Source: Bacillota bacterium
GTDB taxonomy: Bacteria; Bacillota; Clostridia; Christensenellales; UBA1242
NCBI GenBank assembly: GCA_009780065.1
Contig: WRAS01000002.1
Span: 73,916-137,915 of the forward strand
Direction of reading: 5' to 3'
DNA length: 64,000 bases
The notes beneath the pieces were generated by a model, which saw only the letters and a list, made by a program, of their open reading frames with translations, was not told the origin of the DNA and searched no databases. Numbering within the stretch: the first letter of the stretch is position 1; each line of letters starts with the position of its first letter. The position numbers were made by a program, and so were the translations under genes. Shown piece after piece: positions 11,314 to 63,620 of this stretch.

Positions 11314-11835
11314 TTATTGCAATTCTTGCGTAAATCCGCTGTCTAATCCACTTAAACCTTTTTGTAACTTCATTATTTCATTATATGAATACAGACCTTT
11401 TCCATCAAACAAATAATCTGCTAGTTTTGATTTTGGTGTCCAAACCTGTTCTTGTCGAAGCGCCGAAAAATCTTTAACTTCTGGAACTAATACGCGGTCA
11501 GTTCCATAATAACCAAACCCATCCAGTGGATGATATTTATATTCTTGCCTACATCGTTTGACACAGCCACGACCACGTTCAACTGGCACAAGCGCACTTA
11601 TTTCACCTTGACCTTTGATCTTTTTATACACCATACCTTCATTTGTATAATGTACATCAAATTGACCAGTTTCTGGATTCTTTCCCTTACTTACTTCTAC
11701 CCCACTACTGTCTACATATAATTCAGATTCCCGATAGACTGGCAGGTTCGGGAATCGCTTCGCAACACGATCTTGCAAATCACTTATAAGTGTTGTTAAC
11801 TTTGACGGCATTACGTCATATGGTAATCTTCTCAT
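11314..11835 (-). CDS. hypothetical protein
   Basis: Uninterrupted 173-codon ORF with no recognisable motif. Confidence 0.55.
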   Translation of the reverse strand: MRRLPYDVMPSKLTTLISDLQDRVAKRFPNLPVYRESELYVDSSGVEVSKGKNPETGQFDVHYTNEGMVYKKIKGQGEISALVPVERGRGCVKRCRQEYKYHPLDGFGYYGTDRVLVPEVKDFSALRQEQVWTPKSKLADYLFDGKGLYSYNEIMKLQKGLSGLDSGFTQELQ

Positions 11836-11972
11836 TTCACATTATATGATAACAGTAGACCAAAGTCAATATTCAAAAGTTTTTCTGTAATTTAAATTAA
11901 TTGACATTTTATAATCCCGGGTGTAATTATTGGTTACAAGGGGCATACTAGCCCACAAAGGAGAAATTAATT

Positions 11973-12359
11973 ATGGGAATCGTAAGTGCAAAACCAATCA
12001 AAATCAAAAACCCAGAAAACGCAGTCATCGCAAACGGAACAGTAACAACCTGCAAATATGCAGGAGAAGCCAGAACCGGAATTGGTCCATTTGCCAAATC
12101 CACACATTACTACAAAGTATTTATCCATGTTGACGGTCTGGCAAAACCATTGGTTCTTAAGGTCAAAGAAAAAGAAGGTATGAATTTGGGTGTTGTGAAT
12201 GACATGAAATCTTTGGGCAAAATGTTCGGCGGCAAAAAAAGCATGCCAGTTCAAGCAGGCGCACCAATCCAAGTCATGTACGACAAAACAAAGCCAAAAA
12301 AGTGCATGATATACGAAACACCAACAGCAGACCAACCAATGCCACAACCACAACAATAA
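11973..12359 (+). CDS. hypothetical protein
   Basis: AAAGGAGA RBS about 8 nt upstream of the ATG. 128 aa. Confidence 0.6.
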   Translation: MGIVSAKPIKIKNPENAVIANGTVTTCKYAGEARTGIGPFAKSTHYYKVFIHVDGLAKPLVLKVKEKEGMNLGVVNDMKSLGKMFGGKKSMPVQAGAPIQVMYDKTKPKKCMIYETPTADQPMPQPQQ

Positions 12360-12371
12360 TTGAAATGGTAC

Positions 12372-12401
12372 TTGACAACATGCATCATCATATAGTATAA
12401 T
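12372..12401 (+). promoter_or_regulatory. sigma-70 promoter of the GS-like operon leader
   Basis: TTGACA (12372-12377), 18 nt spacer, TATAAT (12396-12401). Confidence 0.5.
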
Positions 12402-12407
12402 ATAGTT

Positions 12408-12443
12408 ATGAAAATCAGAAATCGAGAGCAACAGCAGACGTAA
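12408..12443 (+). CDS. candidate leaderless leader peptide MKIRNREQQQT (three consecutive Gln codons)
   Basis: The ATG lies 7 nt after the -10 box. CAA CAG CAG sits at 12429-12437 and the stop at 12441-12443. The ORF overlaps strand 1 of the alternative hairpins (see findings). Confidence 0.35.
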   Translation: MKIRNREQQQT

Positions 12444-12502
12444 TGTGTATAGGTAACATCCCTATGCACATTTAATGTTGCTTGGGGATTTCAATTAATT
12501 CG

Positions 12503-12527
12503 AAACACCCAAGCCAGGGTGTTTTTT
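12503..12527 (+). terminator. intrinsic terminator/attenuator upstream of the GS-like gene
   Basis: AAACACCC (12503-12510) pairs with GGGTGTTT (12517-12524), with a 6 nt loop and a T-run to 12527. Confidence 0.6.
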
Positions 12528-12553
12528 AAATTAATTTAACAAGGAGAAATTAA

Positions 12554-13726
12554 ATGAAAAAAGATGATATCTTACACAAATTAAAGGATGACAAGTTCCA
12601 TTCATTAAATGTTTATTACGTAACACCATACGGTGAATTACGAACTGGTCTAGATGTTCCAGTCAGCGAAGCCGCAGGAATTTTGGACAGTGGTTTCACA
12701 ATTGACCCCGCAGGTATCGACAGAACTATAAAGGGTGGCACCATGGCGGACGTAACCATATTGCCAGACATCAAATCATTCCGCGAAATTCCATCTATGG
12801 ATCATGACGGACTTCGGGTTGCACATATTTTTGGTGACATTTTCGGAAACAATGGCAAAGCACATCCACTGTGCCCGCGTGGTACACTTAAAAAATCACT
12901 TGCGGACATTCTAATGGCGGATGAAAAATTTATTGTTGGATTGGAAAACGAATATTATGTTCGTACCAACGGTGAATTAACTGGAGAGAACGGATACGGA
13001 CTAGAATCCCCCGACGACCCATTGACAAGACTACGCAGATTAACAATGCATGATATAATTAGTGCCGGTATTGATGTAACCAAGAGCCACAAAGAATGTG
13101 GTAAGAGTCAATACGAATACGTACTAAAGCATGCTGATGCCCTGACTGCCGCAGATAACTATCTATTGGCAGATGCAATATCAAGATACCGTGCTGGACT
13201 TCATGGATACTCAATAGACCGCTCCCCTTTTATGGGAAGCGACAACCCCGTTAATTCCGACCACATAAACATGTCAATCGAAAACGGTGTAAATTCATTC
13301 CTAGAGGGCGATGGAATTTCCCATGCTGCAAAATTTTTCGGCGAAGGAGTTCTTGATAACAATGCAATCATCACAGCACTTACGAATACCACAGCAAATT
13401 CTTATGCTGCACTTGAAAAACTTGGGAAATTTACTGGAATGGGGGATTCACGTATGGAAATAATTCGCTCGAAAAAAGGTGTTCTTGAATACCGTACTTC
13501 CGACAGATCTATGTGTCCACACAACACACTTGCTGCTATACTAGGTGCAGGTAGGTCGTCAGCAGTCGTGGCTGGAGGAAAATATCGTAACGCACCAAAA
13601 AATTTCGACGGTTCAATCAAAACATTAGAATCCGCACTCGCAGACGGTATAACACTTGGGCTTCCAAACGAATTATTCGAATTCCACATTAACAACCGCA
13701 AAAACGGAATAGGGAGAGATAAATGA
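12554..13726 (+). CDS. glutamine synthetase family protein (divergent, 390 aa; gamma-glutamyl/amide ligase-like)
   Basis: KSHKECGKSQYEYVLKHADALTAADNYLLADAISRY...SPFMGSDNPVNSDHINMSI resembles the GS catalytic core (HHEVAxGQxEI...ADxL...KP..G.NGSG.H.H.S). AAGGAGA RBS upstream. Confidence 0.75.
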   Translation: MKKDDILHKLKDDKFHSLNVYYVTPYGELRTGLDVPVSEAAGILDSGFTIDPAGIDRTIKGGTMADVTILPDIKSFREIPSMDHDGLRVAHIFGDIFGNNGKAHPLCPRGTLKKSLADILMADEKFIVGLENEYYVRTNGELTGENGYGLESPDDPLTRLRRLTMHDIISAGIDVTKSHKECGKSQYEYVLKHADALTAADNYLLADAISRYRAGLHGYSIDRSPFMGSDNPVNSDHINMSIENGVNSFLEGDGISHAAKFFGEGVLDNNAIITALTNTTANSYAALEKLGKFTGMGDSRMEIIRSKKGVLEYRTSDRSMCPHNTLAAILGAGRSSAVVAGGKYRNAPKNFDGSIKTLESALADGITLGLPNELFEFHINNRKNGIGRDK

Positions 13727-14793
13727 TAAAGGTCGAAATTAATTTAAGTGCTATTCGTCGTAATATTTTAAAAATGAAAGCCAAATTAAAACCTGGGACA
13801 AAGTTTTGTCCGGTATTAAAAGCCAATGGATATCGTTTCGGTGATGACAAAGTCGCACCAGCAATAGAAGACATCGTGGATTACTTTGGTTGCTTTCACA
13901 TTACCGAACTAGAACGCTTGCGCAATGCGGGCATAACAAAGCCAATTCTACTACTTGGTGTTTGCGAGGATTTTGGTCGTGCAATAAAGAATAAAGCAAC
14001 AATTACAATTACCAGCGTTTTCGAAGCCAAAGCCCTTGCAAAATTTGCGGGGGAAAACAAACTAAACTGTCCCATCCATATCGAGGTCGATACCGGCATG
14101 GAACGATTTGGGATTGCCACAATAGACGAATTAAAAGAAATTTTAGACATCGCAGGCAAATCAAAGTTTATTGATATTACTGGTCTATTTACGCATTTTG
14201 CATATGCCACAACCGAGAATAAAGACATGGTGGATGCACAAATTCGGGCATTCAAACCTTTTGCAACAATGCTTAAAAAGAAATATCAAAATGCAATTAT
14301 CCACGCAGCAAGCAGCGGAACCGCAGAATATTCAGACGCACAATTTGATATGGTTCGTGGGGGATTTTTCATCTACGGTTCACTTGTTGATGGATATGAA
14401 AATTGCCTAAAAGCCACTTCTAACATCGTTGCAATCCGTCATGTAAAAGCAGGCACCAAAATAGGCTACAGCGGAACCAAAACCGTGGACAAAGACACAA
14501 CAATTGGTCTTGTTGCAGCCGGTTATGCCGATGTAATTAATTTCAAACTTTTTGCAACCGCCCCCCTATTCGTGAATGACAAACCATGTTATGTATTAGG
14601 CAGAATTTGTATGGACAGTTGCATGATAGATGTCAGCCATATCAAAGACCCGCTTGGAAAAACCGTTACGGTCTATGACAATAAACCTAGCATGACTCTG
14701 TTAGACCGTGGGAACGAAAACGGTCATACAGGCAGTTTAATCTTAGCACTTGATTTCAACCGTGCGGATGTAACATACATCACAGATAAATAG
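13723..14793 (+). CDS. alr: alanine racemase family PLP enzyme
   Basis: Motifs PVLKANGYRFG (PLP lysine), VAAGYADV and GRICMDSCMIDV. ATGA overlap with the preceding gene. Confidence 0.8.
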   Translation: MIKVEINLSAIRRNILKMKAKLKPGTKFCPVLKANGYRFGDDKVAPAIEDIVDYFGCFHITELERLRNAGITKPILLLGVCEDFGRAIKNKATITITSVFEAKALAKFAGENKLNCPIHIEVDTGMERFGIATIDELKEILDIAGKSKFIDITGLFTHFAYATTENKDMVDAQIRAFKPFATMLKKKYQNAIIHAASSGTAEYSDAQFDMVRGGFFIYGSLVDGYENCLKATSNIVAIRHVKAGTKIGYSGTKTVDKDTTIGLVAAGYADVINFKLFATAPLFVNDKPCYVLGRICMDSCMIDVSHIKDPLGKTVTVYDNKPSMTLLDRGNENGHTGSLILALDFNRADVTYITDK

Positions 14794-14795
14794 GG

Positions 14796-14825
14796 TTGAC
14801 ATCCCAGACGCAACTAGCGTATATT
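14796..14825 (+). promoter_or_regulatory. sigma-70 promoter immediately after the alr stop codon
   Basis: TTGACA (14796-14801), 18 nt spacer, TATATT (14820-14825). Confidence 0.5.
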
Positions 14826-14832
14826 AAAAGGT

Positions 14833-14916
14833 ATGAACATGAATATGACCACGAAAGTTGGGTACACAGTACATCATCACATCATGCACGGATTGCCGTG
14901 TGTGATTATTTCGTAA
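14833..14916 (+). CDS. candidate leaderless leader peptide MNMNMTTKVGYTVHHHIMHGLPCVIIS (His-codon cluster)
   Basis: The ATG lies 8 nt after the -10 box. CAT CAT CAC ATC ATG CAC sits at 14872-14889 and the stop at 14914-14916. The 3' part of the ORF can pair with the terminator 5' arm. Confidence 0.35.
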   Translation: MNMNMTTKVGYTVHHHIMHGLPCVIIS

Positions 14917-14953
14917 TGTCATATTAAAATTCCAAGCGAAACAAAAACACACA

Positions 14954-14989
14954 AACCGCAATCCGACACAAATGGATTGCGGTTTTTTT
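14954..14989 (+). terminator. strong intrinsic terminator/attenuator
   Basis: AACCGCAATCC (14954-14964) pairs with GGATTGCGGTT (14974-14984): 11 bp stem, 9 nt loop, seven T residues. Confidence 0.7.
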
Positions 14990-15037
14990 GTGGTATTAAT
15001 TCATCGTTCAAAACAAAAATAGGAGATATAAACAAAA

Positions 15038-15983
15038 ATGAAAGCGAAACCTTTCTATGGTACAGGACTTGGTGGATATGGAAAGCCCACCCAAGGGTTG
15101 GGGTTGGAAACCCTAGGACTTCAATTTGCAACAATACAAATGGCGCGGGACAACAACCAAGACAGCATTTTATGGCACCTTGGAACCGAGGGCTATGGTG
15201 TAACATCCGAACAACGCGACAGAACAATCGGCGAAATGTCTGATGTTGCCGACAAAATTAATTGTGGCATGTCCAAACTAAAGGTTCTGGACACAAACGG
15301 TCAATGGAGGTCACCCCATTTCGCTGGACTTCTTCCCTGCATTCCAACACAATGGACGCGATCAATATAACGACATATATGCAAAAACACAAGAACGTTT
15401 TGGCGACTTTAGGGGCATCGACGGAATTGAATATGTATTTGACTATCCCTTGCTTCAAACTGCCCAAGTTGTTGATTTGGTGGAAAACTTTGGTGTAACC
15501 GCCCAAACCGGCTGGGACAATTCAAAGAAATCCCAAGAAACCGAACAGTGTATGGATTTCAACCAACTTGTCATTGCACTTTTGAAAAAGCGTTTGGGCG
15601 AAAAATTTTTTATTGATTTACTTAAAAACCGTTATCCAGAAATCCAATTGGGTTCTGTGAACGTACCCGCCGCAATTGACTTTGCAACCGGAAATCAACA
15701 GTCTCCCTACACAATTGCCGAGGGTTCAACCAGACCACGTATAGACGAACGTTTCAGTAAATTCTGTGCTCGCACAATCGGCATGAAAGGATATGACAAG
15801 GCAATAGAACGAATAGACAGAAACATAGTCGAGCGATTCGAAAGTTTATACGGCGAAATCCCGAGTCAGAAGAAAGCCAGAATCGCTACTGGGATGGATT
15901 ATTCGCAAGAATGTATCAGATCAAAACAATCAACAACAATTGCAAAAGTTGACCAGATTCAAAATCTAATGGGGGTTATATAA
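15038..15983 (+). pseudogene. unknown ~315 aa protein interrupted by a +1 frameshift (or an assembly error)
   Basis: The ORF at 15038-15370 is in frame 2. Frame 0 is open from 15282 and reads VNGGHPISLDFFPAFQHNGRDQYNDIYAKTQERFGDF..., running into the ORF that ends at 15983. There is no ATG/GTG and no RBS before the TTG at 15450. Confidence 0.5.
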
Positions 15984-24279: not shown

Positions 24280-24356
24280 GGATCTGTACCCCAATTGGCA
24301 GAGGGACACGACTAAGGATCGTGACAGTGGAGGTTCAAGTCCTCTCAGATCCACCA
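24280..24356 (+). tRNA. element-encoded 77 nt tRNA-like gene, anticodon AAG (Leu-type D arm and A73, but only a 5 nt variable loop)
   Basis: Acceptor GGATCTG/CAGATCC (7 bp perfect). D arm CCC-CAATTGGCAGA-GGG. Anticodon arm CACGA-CTAAGGA-TCGTG. T arm GGAGG-TTCAAGT-CCTCT. A73 plus an encoded CCA. Confidence 0.6.
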
Positions 24357-63259: not shown

Positions 63260-63620
63260 TGGTGGAAGCGGTGGGAGTTGAACCCACGTCCGAATGGTTG
63301 TCTGTTTAAGTTTCTACATGCTTAGTCTCATGGATTTTACAATCTAGTGACCATCATGGACATTGGTCGTAGAAGGTGTGGAATTATTAGGGTAAACATC
63401 CAATCCACAAATGGATAATTACCGCGCGTACTTTGTTTGACCCCATCAAAGTATAAAGTACGAAAACTTTAATGGAGATGCCTTGTTACCTAATAAAATT
63501 AAGCAGCAAGAGCGTAAGGTGCTGGTTTTGCACTTAAAATTTATTGCAAAGTTTTACGCCATTCACAAAGGCGGCATGCTTGTTAAACCCTTCCCCACCC
63601 GTCGAAGCCATTTCGCCCCC
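63260..63620 (-). ncRNA. ssrA: tmRNA (transfer-messenger RNA)
   Basis: On the minus strand, the 5' end reads GGGGGCGAAATGGCTTCGACGGG and the 3' end GGACGTGGGTTCAACTCCCACCGCTTCCACCA. The tag ORF ends GCA AAA CCA GCA CCT TAC GCT CTT GCT GCT TAA (…AKPAPYALAA). Confidence 0.9.

Follow-up and report, generated by a model that had tools for sequence, protein, structure and literature searches.

Genes and features of the locus

The window analyzed here is a stretch of 64,000 nucleotides from an uncultured member of the Bacillota (contig WRAS01000002.1, positions 73,916 to 137,915). Within it, two overlapping genes encoding an orphan glutamine synthetase (GS)-like ligase and an alanine-racemase-family protein are preceded by a leader that contains a near-consensus promoter, a short open reading frame (sORF) rich in glutamine codons, a set of competing RNA hairpins and an intrinsic terminator (Table 1). 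It was originally predicted that the promoter, a predicted leaderless sORF with Gln codons, two alternative pairings (AGCAACA with TGTTGCT, and GCTTGGG with CCCAAGC), an inner helix and a terminator are all present in this leader. Each of these features was confirmed in the sequence. AGCAACA (12427-12433) is complementary to TGTTGCT (12476-12482), the inner helix has 12 pairs of which one is G-U, and the terminator arms are AAACACCC 12503-12510 / GGGTGTTT 17-24.

Table 1. Features of the leader and of the downstream genes in the window.
Feature	Coordinates	Strand	Description	Supporting evidence
Sigma-70-type promoter	12372-12401	+	TTGACA (12372-12377), 18-nt spacer, TATAAT (12396-12401)	Only 12/12 promoter match in 11800-15600
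Short ORF, predicted leaderless	12408-12443	+	MKIRNREQQQT*; ATG 12408, stop TAA 12441-43; 6 nt between the -10 and the ATG, no room for a Shine-Dalgarno	ATG invariant in the 7-way alignment
Candidate regulatory Gln codons	12429-12437	+	CAA CAG CAG (codons 8-10)
Strand Z	12418-12433	+	5' strands of the outer stems, GAAAUC 12418-23 and GAGCAACA 12426-33; inside the sORF, includes the Glu-Gln codons	Z with C plus the outer 3' strand, -17.3 kcal/mol; shuffle fraction 0.007
Strand A	12442-12453	+	5' arm of the central hairpin; starts at the second base of the stop codon	A:B, -16.3 kcal/mol; shuffle fraction 0.000
Strand B	12458-12472	+	3' arm of the central hairpin (conserved CCCUAUGCAC); pairs with A (12461-72) or with C (12458-68)	B:C, shuffle fraction 0.011
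Strand C	12476-12492	+	UGUUGCUUGGGG plus the outer 3' strand GAUUUC; pairs with Z, B or D
Intrinsic terminator (strands D and E)	12502-12527	+	5' arm GAAACACCC 12502-10 (D), loop AAGCCA, 3' arm GGGUGUUUU (E), T run to 12527; CCCAAGC (12508-14) pairs with GCTTGGG (12480-86) in the antiterminator	C:D, -16.1 kcal/mol; shuffle fraction 0.017
Downstream gene 1, orphan GS-like ligase	12554-13726	+	390 aa, only the Gln-synt_C domain; AAGGAG Shine-Dalgarno at 12543-48	Pfam PF00120, E = 4.7e-22; best solved relatives GS type I, E = 9e-22
Downstream gene 2, alanine-racemase-family protein	13723-14793	+	356 aa; start overlaps the stop of the GS-like gene	Pfam Ala_racemase_N and Ala_racemase_C; TIGR00492, 223 bits against a cutoff of 168; PDB alanine racemases, E = 1e-39

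The leader folds far better than shuffled sequences. The minimum-free-energy fold of 12408-12535 contains exactly the long hairpin plus the terminator and has an energy of -45.7 kcal/mol, compared with -22.0 +/- 3.2 for shuffles (z = -7.42; 0 of 200 shuffles as good). Each of the alternative pairings was also compared with 1000 shuffles of one strand, and each was stronger than most or all of them (Table 1). A simple terminator scan did not list the terminator, possibly because the scan extends the stem into the T run and then finds too few T's left. The fold itself shows a 9-bp stem followed by U's.

Homologous leaders in other Bacillota

Close relatives of the GS-like protein are rare. A single-protein scan of genomes found none, a word-indexed search found only the protein itself, and an exhaustive search of 1.84 billion representative proteins gave just two close relatives above 35% identity (P0005 and P0007; 37-45% identity). 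The locus encoding P0007 (L084) has a LysR gene and no leader. Pattern scans for the leader in genome contigs returned only the contig of locus L083 plus 7 hits that look like chance, and scans of metagenome contigs returned only locus L174, which is the same organism as L083, plus one chance hit. Viral contigs returned nothing, although the second gap of the pattern used there was too narrow even for the window. A homology search with the GS of L083 then opened a subfamily of short GS proteins. In total, six homologous leaders were found in other uncultured gut Firmicutes, all known from metagenomes (loci L083/L174, L175, L176, L177, L179 and L182). Of the further loci examined, L181 encodes a short GS but has no leader, and L178 is cut off inside the leader.

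All six homologous leaders precede a short GS gene, in two cases after intervening ORFs. In L174 and L175, homologs of the window's GS-like gene (43 and 38% identity, respectively) sit just downstream of a short GS, behind the same leader. The window's copy is the most divergent member and the only one in which the leader directly precedes the orphan GS-like gene rather than a short GS.

The layout of the leader is shared by all seven loci. The promoters of the six homologs consist of TTGAC[AT], a 16-19 nt spacer and a TATAAT-like -10, and the invariant ATG lies 5-7 nt after the -10. The sORFs have 11-13 codons, with lengths that differ by whole codons (33, 36 or 39 nt). The homologous peptides are MTRKTLNQQEEMQ, MNIRFFNEQQEQN, MNFYSLNQEQQQ, MEFKTLNQQQR, MNLKSLNQQEQRQ and MNFKSLNQQQEQQ. 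Each of the seven sORFs has 3-5 Gln codons, located at codons 8-13 with CAA and CAG interchanging. Gln accounts for 25 of 86 sORF residues, compared with 3.3% in the window's long ORFs. As A-to-G changes in these codons are also neutral for pairing with U, the synonymous variation does not by itself prove coding. The stop codon (TAA or TAG) overlaps the foot of hairpin arm A in all seven leaders, and all six homologs also have a terminator.

Four competing helices exist in all seven leaders although their sequences differ. Their duplex energies range from -13.8 to -23.4 kcal/mol for A:B, from -10.0 to -16.4 for B:C, from -12.4 to -20.6 for Z:C and from -11.2 to -20.0 for C:D, with shuffle fractions of 0.000-0.063 overall and 0.000-0.054 for C:D. 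The B:C pairing, between the 3' arm of the central hairpin and GUUGC..GGGG, was not part of the original prediction. Notably, RNAalifold on the 7-way MAFFT alignment picks B:C as the consensus helix, with 3 pairs changed on both sides. For A:B and Z:C, the 5' arms misalign because of differences in loop length, and support for these helices relies instead on the duplex energies of the individual sequences with shuffles. The GUUGC motif of strand C is conserved in the family (TTGC is invariant in the alignment and the first base is A in L175). GUUGC is the complement of GCAAC / GCAGC, the Gln codons, and pairs either with these codons or with the 5' arm of the terminator. The seven sequences are the only distinct ones known, and they are related, so these counts are not independent.

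No Rfam family matches the leader. A search of the whole window against Rfam at the gathering threshold returned only a tmRNA and a tRNA, a search of 12300-12650 at E up to 10 returned only sub-threshold chance hits, and the six homologous loci at E up to 0.1 returned nothing on the leaders.

Modeled effect of ribosome position

The effect of a ribosome was modeled by masking its footprint in folds of the full leader of the window. With the A site on codons 6-9, 7-10 or 8-11 (assuming unwinding through A-site +12, +9 or +6 nt), terminator probability drops to 0.03-0.13. At all earlier codons, at the stop codon, and with no ribosome it is at least 0.94. Gln codons 8 and 9 fall in the permissive window under all three footprint assumptions, and all three Gln codons under two of them. 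This equilibrium model gives a clean switch only in the window, and in L083 the terminator is predicted to win at every ribosome position. Folding of transcripts truncated before the 3' arm of the terminator always favors the antiterminator and is uninformative about kinetics. A kinetic proxy (free C before D is transcribed) was considered. It peaks at the Gln-rich codons in the window, L176, L179 and L182, is weak in L175 and L177, and is absent in L083.

A proposed glutamine-sensing attenuator

Taken together, the leader is probably a ribosome-mediated transcription attenuator that senses glutamine supply through the speed at which a ribosome translates a predicted leaderless sORF of 11 codons. 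The original prediction of a Gln-codon leader peptide with an anti-antiterminator, an antiterminator and a terminator read out by ribosome position survives every computational test that could be run, and the comparative data make it much stronger. Transcription is inferred to start at or next to the A of ATG 12408, and a 70S ribosome is inferred to load on this 5'-AUG. In the proposed model, the Gln-codon strand Z (sORF codons 4-9), the two arms of the central hairpin (A and B), C (GUUGCUUGGGG) and the two arms of the terminator (D and E) then compete. In the absence of a ribosome, Z:C and A:B form one long hairpin, C is locked away, D:E forms and transcription stops at 12527. When a ribosome pauses on the Gln codons because Gln-tRNA(Gln) is scarce, Z is covered but A:B stays, so C is free to pair with D as it emerges (GCUUGGG:CCCAAGC). 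The terminator cannot form, and RNA polymerase reads into the GS-like/racemase operon. When the ribosome runs on to the stop codon, it melts A, and B is released and pairs with C. D:E then forms and transcription stops, so that only a ribosome paused on the Gln codons gives read-through. Translation of the sORF (from geometry and conservation only), the coupling of ribosome and polymerase and the dependence on Gln-tRNA charging are likewise inferred, and the U-rich tract after B may be a pause site. The presence of a GS gene in the operons behind the six other leaders gives the physiological logic. For the window's own copy, induction by Gln starvation is only indirectly motivated, as the product of its operon is unknown.

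Alternative explanations

The alternatives to this model are all considered unlikely. The least unlikely is that ribosome position does control the terminator but that the signal is not glutamine specifically, so that the element would report general translation capacity or any slowing of the pioneer ribosome. In this view, the Gln codons exist because CAR CAG is what complements the conserved GUUGC strand. Indeed, the Gln codons are base-paired with GUUGC in every member, so RNA pairing alone constrains them, and the permissive window of the model also covers the neighboring Arg and Glu codons. However, Gln codons also occur beyond the paired stretch (codons 11-13 in L083, L175, L179 and L182), where pairing does not require them. 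The enrichment in Gln (29% against 3.3%) and the presence of GS in all the other operons also count against this view, as does a sibling element with His codons in front of a histidine-racemase-like operon, which fits an amino-acid-specific design.

It is doubtful that the leader is an RNA switch operated by a trans-acting factor (a small-molecule ligand such as glutamine, an RNA-binding antiterminator protein, or a tRNA) with an incidental sORF. The element does have a conserved block, CCCUAUGCAC-N7/8-GUUGC, and a classical terminator/antiterminator layout, as riboswitches and protein-controlled leaders do. However, no glutamine riboswitch, T-box or other Rfam family matches at the thresholds given above, and the conserved block is fully explained by its two alternative pairings. 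Loops and junctions are variable, with hairpin loops of 3 to 7 nt and no conserved sequence, so no ligand pocket is evident. Conservation of the ATG, reading frame, Gln codons and stop position is not required by such a switch. The variable arm spacing of the central inverted repeat (3 to 7 nt) also argues against a dimeric DNA operator, and, compared by eye, the sequence does not fit what is probably the GlnR/TnrA box (TGTNA-N7-TNACA).

A nascent peptide that senses free glutamine or another metabolite in the manner of TnaC, with arrest at or near the stop codon when the metabolite is abundant, is also improbable. The stop codon sits exactly at the foot of the central hairpin in all seven leaders, and induction by excess substrate would suit a catabolic or salvage operon (racemase, C26 peptidase, S51 peptidases). 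In the model, however, a ribosome held at the stop codon frees B, which pairs with C and favors termination rather than read-through. The peptides show little conservation apart from the Gln residues and the part encoded by the outer stem, and 11-13 residues is probably short for an arrest peptide filling the exit tunnel.

Equally improbable is that the terminator simply ends the upstream gene (11973-12359, which has no terminator of its own before the promoter) or a small independent RNA, or that the sORF encodes a functional peptide such as a GS-binding peptide (small proteins of this kind seem to occur in other organisms), because only 27 nt separate the T run from the GS-like start codon, with no room for another promoter, so the operon must be read through this terminator, the leader travels with GS genes in seven genomic contexts with different upstream genes, and mutually exclusive helices would be unnecessary for a plain terminator.

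Comparison with known systems

The classical attenuators of amino-acid operons in enterobacteria (trpL, hisL, leuL, thrL, pheL and ilvL) have a short leader ORF enriched in codons for the amino acid made by the operon, an intrinsic terminator before the first structural gene, and mutually exclusive pairings with the regulatory codons in the first strand. Read-through occurs only when the ribosome stalls at these codons, and termination occurs both without translation and with complete translation. The proposed element follows this logic but is keyed to glutamine and precedes GS or a GS-like ligase. Its sORF lacks a Shine-Dalgarno and starts at the predicted +1. An extra hairpin (A:B) and a fourth alternative pairing (B:C) replace the simple 1:2 / 2:3 / 3:4 scheme, the hosts are uncultured Clostridia/Bacillota rather than Proteobacteria, and there is no sequence or covariance-model similarity to any Rfam leader. 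No described Gln attenuator or Gln leader peptide was found in the literature searches.

Polycysteine leaderless sORFs have been described in mycobacteria (the Cys 'ribulon'; Canestrari et al., bioRxiv 10.1101/834739). In these, a leaderless sORF beginning with 5'-AUG is the first cistron of an operon and carries consecutive codons for the amino acid linked to the operon's pathway, and a ribosome stalled in the codon tract blocks an inhibitory RNA structure. Several operons may share the same logic. In the window, the alternative structures end in a hairpin plus U-run terminator, which is transcriptional control, and the Shine-Dalgarno of the GS-like gene lies 3' of all the helices. The amino acid (Cys against Gln) and the phylum (Actinomycetota against Bacillota) also differ. 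Candidates for uORF-type attenuation have been found by sequence comparison only, such as uORFC-8-2 upstream of cysS in Rhodobacterales (PMC8632094), which has a conserved AUG, tandem conserved codons for the cognate amino acid with synonymous variation, and RNA structure downstream. The amino acid, gene, clade and structure are different, and those uORFs are not described as leaderless. The glutamine riboswitches of cyanobacteria (glnA RNA and the downstream-peptide / Gln-II motif) are likewise cis-acting leader RNAs of nitrogen-assimilation genes that report glutamine status. They bind free glutamine directly and need no translation, whereas the proposed element would sense glutamine through charged tRNA and the ribosome.

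The control of GS appears to involve transcription factors (NtrC, GlnR/TnrA), covalent modification, feedback inhibition, small proteins, antisense RNA and glutamine riboswitches. A ribosome-stalling sensor keyed to Gln codons would add a new route, and would be the first leader-peptide attenuator for glutamine that could be found. It would also show that leader-peptide attenuation, usually taught as a proteobacterial device, operates with leaderless mRNAs in Clostridia, in a compact switch of about 120 nt. The motif would mark nitrogen-regulated operons in uncultured gut bacteria and link an orphan GS-like ligase and racemases to glutamine economy, which is a lead to their function.

Leaderless geometry and a second sORF in the window

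Leaderless expression looks normal in this genome, as six long ORFs in the window have a near-consensus promoter 5-7 nt before their start codon. Interestingly, the sibling element with His codons lies 2.4 kb downstream of the Gln-codon sORF and has the same design. In a further locus, L184, in which this second sORF is conserved, the candidate antiterminator of the second leader is not better than shuffles. It is more likely than not that the Gln-codon leaders represent an undescribed class of glutamine-sensing attenuators in a lineage of uncultured gut Clostridia/Bacillota, and together with the His-codon sORF this would mean that these organisms run a set of leaderless leader-peptide attenuators for several amino acids.

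Verification of the Leader and Its Surroundings

The sequence features described in the original prediction were confirmed by rereading positions 12100-12900 (see table). Only 6 nt separate the -10 element from the ATG, so no Shine-Dalgarno sequence can fit. The promoter was the only 12/12 match in the 3.8-kb stretch scanned. The RNA from 12408 to 12535 was predicted to fold into one long hairpin plus the terminator, with an energy of -45.7 kcal/mol against -22.0 +/- 3.2 kcal/mol for dinucleotide shuffles (z = -7.42), and none of 200 shuffles folded as well. When the terminator was left out, the z-score was -5.63.

Coordinates of the leader and of other features (window positions unless a locus is named)
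Feature	Position	Strand	Details
Promoter, -35 element	12372-12377		TTGACA, followed by an 18-nt spacer
Promoter, -10 element	12396-12401		TATAAT
Start codon of the sORF	12408		ATG; ORF MKIRNREQQQT*
Gln codons	12429-12437		CAA CAG CAG
Long hairpin	12418-12492		predicted fold
Strand in the Gln-codon region	12427-12433		AGCAACA, complementary to TGTTGCT (12476-12482)
Inner helix	12442-12453 with 12461-12472		12 pairs, one of them G-U
B:C pairing	12458-12468 with 12479-12489		predicted once the ribosome reaches the last codons
Antiterminator pairing	12480-12486 with 12508-12514		GCTTGGG, complementary to CCCAAGC
Terminator	12503-12524		T's to 12527
Downstream gene 1	12554-13726		390-aa GS-like protein
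Downstream gene 2	13723-14793		alanine-racemase-family protein; overlaps the stop of gene 1
Second leader	14796-14992		TTGACA, 18 nt, TATATT
sORF of the second leader	14833-14916		ATG at 14833, 7 nt after the -10
Hairpin of the second leader	14881-14906
Terminator of the second leader	14953-14985
Split gene, first ORF	15038-15370		110 aa
Split gene, second ORF	15450-15983		177 aa
Long ORFs with promoter-abutting start codons	11835, 37572, 41522, 42420, 62332, 1365 (start codons)	-	128-595 aa
tRNA gene	24280-24353	+	preceded by TTGACA, 17 nt, TACAAT
tmRNA gene	63260-63620	-	145 bits
Second leader in L184	L184:3495-3665		sORF from 3531
Frameshift site in a short GS gene	L083:1219-1242
Region with extra genes between leader and GS in L182	L182:904-3984		67-aa acidic ORF and two Peptidase_S51 genes
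Region with an extra gene between leader and GS in L176	L176:3576-5098		61-aa ORF

The first downstream gene encodes a protein with only the catalytic domain of glutamine synthetase (GS). It scores far below the cutoffs of every curated GS family and is distantly related to solved type I GS (E = 9e-22). The protein is almost an orphan, and among 1.84 billion representative proteins only two exceed 35% identity. Notably, two giant proteins in the same library, P0006 (4424 aa) and P0008 (2757 aa), contain seven and three separate stretches similar to it (E = 4e-60 and 2e-30), and they look like multi-module proteins built from GS-like ligase domains. Only 27 nt lie between the T run and the GS-like ATG, so the operon must be transcribed through the terminator. 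The genome belongs to an uncultured member of the Clostridia, and two metagenomic contigs carry the identical locus.

Comparative Analysis of Seven Leaders

The decisive evidence came from comparison with other genomes. The closest GS-like relative (L083, the same as L174, from a termite-gut Bacillota MAG, 43-45% identical) lies in an operon with the order leader, short GS, GS-like, class-I amidotransferase/C26 peptidase and Asp/Glu racemase. Its leader is recognizably homologous to that of the window. A search with this short GS revealed a small subfamily of 350-406 aa enzymes, and inspection of their contigs gave further leaders in L175, L176 and L177 and then in L179 and L182. One subfamily member (L181) has no leader, and one contig (L178) is cut off inside it.

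The seven leaders share TTGAC[AT], a 16-19 nt spacer, a TATAAT-like -10 and an invariant ATG 5-7 nt after the -10. Each has an ORF of 11, 12 or 13 codons, which reads MKIRNREQQQT in the window, MTRKTLNQQEEMQ in L083, MNIRFFNEQQEQN in L175, MNFYSLNQEQQQ in L176, MEFKTLNQQQR in L177, MNLKSLNQQEQRQ in L179 and MNFKSLNQQQEQQ in L182. The stop codon is TAA or TAG, and its last bases begin the 5' arm of a central hairpin. Also shared are the block CCCUAUGCAC-N7/8-GUUGC-..GG, an outer stem (CCUUGAAC:GUUCAAGG in most and GAAAUC:GAUUUC in the window) and a terminator. Gln makes up 25 of 86 sORF residues, against 3.3% in the long ORFs of the window. CAA and CAG interchange between members, and the length differences are whole codons.

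All six other leaders precede an operon with a short GS, and L174 and L175 additionally carry the window-type GS-like gene right after it. The window's copy is therefore a divergent member of a GS leader family in which the leader directly precedes the GS-like gene. L176 comes from the same sample as the window's contig and has the same G+C content (39.6% against 39.4%), and it might be the GS locus of the same organism, although this has not been shown. In L182 and L176 the Gln leader is followed by extra genes before the GS. Together with the C26 gamma-glutamyl-type peptidase and the Asp/Glu racemase with which the L174 operon continues, the recurring peptidases and racemases hint at salvage of glutamate or glutamine from peptides or D-amino acids.

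Interestingly, seven of eight short GS genes related to these leaders (in L083, L175, L176, L177, L178, L181 and L182) need a +1 frameshift at a conserved NGG GGG T(G/A)T site, at about nt 76-81 of the gene. The 0 frame stops at TGA 5 codons later, whereas the +1 frame continues with the conserved GS motif (e.g., FVDARG, then VPKSVEVT). Gene callers split these genes into a 32-aa ORF and a roughly 365-aa ORF. The gene in L179 has no G5 run and is in frame. The site recurs in different samples and assemblers, so it may reflect programmed frameshifting or slippage rather than error. A literature search on this point found nothing.

Alternative RNA Pairings

The strands of the leader were named Z (the 3' half of the sORF, including the Gln codons), A and B (the two arms of the central hairpin), C (GUUGC..GGGG), and D and E (the two terminator arms). 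Four duplexes are present in every one of the seven leaders. Their energies range from -13.8 to -23.4 kcal/mol for A:B, from -10.0 to -16.4 for B:C, from -12.4 to -20.6 for Z:C plus the outer stem, and from -11.2 to -20.0 for C:D (-16.1 in the window). Each is stronger than nearly all of 1000 shuffles of one strand, with fractions from 0.000 to 0.063. RNAalifold on the plain MAFFT alignment chose B:C and the terminator as the consensus, and three B:C pairs are changed on both sides. For instance, CCUAUGCA:UGCAUAGG in L083 becomes CCUGUGCA:UGCACAGG in L175. The conserved GUUGC is the complement of the Gln-codon string (GCAAC or GCAGC). This explains why both are conserved, and it means that a ribosome sitting on those codons directly liberates the antiterminator strand.

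Modeling of Ribosome Position

To model the effect of translation, the RNA was masked from the 5' end to the leading edge of the ribosome and the remainder of the window's leader was folded. With no ribosome, with the A site on early codons or with the ribosome at the stop codon, the terminator probability was 0.94-0.99. For four consecutive A-site positions it was 0.03-0.13, and these were codons 6-9, 7-10 or 8-11 for unwinding through A-site +12, +9 or +6 nt, respectively. Gln codons 8 and 9 fall inside the permissive window under every assumption, and all three Gln codons fall inside it under the two shorter footprints. Once the ribosome reaches the last codons, A is melted, B pairs with C and the terminator returns. 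This is the logic of the trp attenuator, with an extra hairpin that makes the permissive window narrow.

The model is weaker for the other leaders. With its 12-bp terminator, L083 never switches at equilibrium. Folding of transcripts truncated before the 3' arm of the terminator always favored the antiterminator and is thus uninformative about kinetics. As a kinetic proxy, the probability that C is unpaired just before D is made was calculated. It peaks at the Gln-rich codons in the window, L176, L179 and L182, is weak in L175 and L177, and is absent in L083, whereas a ribosome at the stop codon gives the minimum, or a tie for it, in all seven. Real behavior will depend on co-transcriptional kinetics. 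In all seven leaders B is followed by a U-rich stretch, which could be a hairpin-dependent pause site that synchronizes polymerase and ribosome, but this is inference only.

Alternative Explanations

Of the other explanations considered, a generic translation sensor cannot be excluded, because the Gln codons are also constrained by pairing. However, extra Gln codons occur outside the paired segment, and the association with GS is specific. A ligand-binding or protein-binding RNA is unlikely, as no Rfam model matches, the loops and junctions vary freely, and the ATG, the frame and the stop are conserved. A TnaC-like arrest at the stop codon would favor termination in the model, which is the wrong sign for induction. 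A DNA operator is unlikely because the spacing of the inverted repeat varies from 3 to 7 nt.

Comparison With Known Leader Peptides

The element resembles classical leader-peptide transcription attenuation in how it would work. Four structural features of that class are present, whereas the start signal would be leaderless and remains uncertain. The idea of a leaderless sORF is shared with the poly-Cys sORFs of mycobacteria, but those act by unmasking a ribosome-binding site (Canestrari et al., bioRxiv 10.1101/834739), whereas the element described here ends in an intrinsic terminator. Comparable uORF candidates have been described for other amino acids (PMC8632094). Full-text searches for Gln-codon leader peptides or leader-peptide control of glnA found nothing relevant, although coverage of the literature was incomplete and a prior description cannot be ruled out. 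Taken together, the original prediction of a Gln-codon leader peptide with trp-style alternative hairpins is supported and refined. The element appears to represent a conserved, apparently undescribed family of glutamine-codon attenuators with a leaderless leader peptide, and it probably regulates by ribosome stalling at the Gln codons, although the transcription start, the translation of the sORF and the dependence on Gln-tRNA charging are inferred.

A Second Leader and Other Features of the Locus

Support for this reading was found in the same locus, where a second element of the same design, with histidine codons, encodes the sORF MNMNMTTKVGYTVHHHIMHGLPCVIIS*. The tip of its hairpin, CGGAUUGC, is perfectly complementary to the 5' arm of its terminator, GCAAUCCG (-14.9 kcal/mol, shuffle fraction 0.012). 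This element precedes genes ending in a CntK-like (histidine-racemase-like) protein. In L184, a locus with the orthologous operon, the genes are preceded by TTGACA, 17 nt, TATAAT, 6 nt, and then ATG and MDMKFTCIHHHHMRLACGSFVS* plus a terminator, but the candidate antiterminator is not significant. In addition, six long ORFs in the window have a near-consensus promoter ending 5-7 nt before their ATG or GTG. This suggests that leaderless mRNAs may be common in this genome.

Downstream of the second leader, two ORFs match the N-terminal and C-terminal parts of a single 278-aa protein of unknown function in L184 (45% and 43% identity). The gene therefore looks split in the window, by a frameshift, a pseudogene or an assembly error. 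A tmRNA gene and a tRNA gene are the only Rfam families above threshold in the window.
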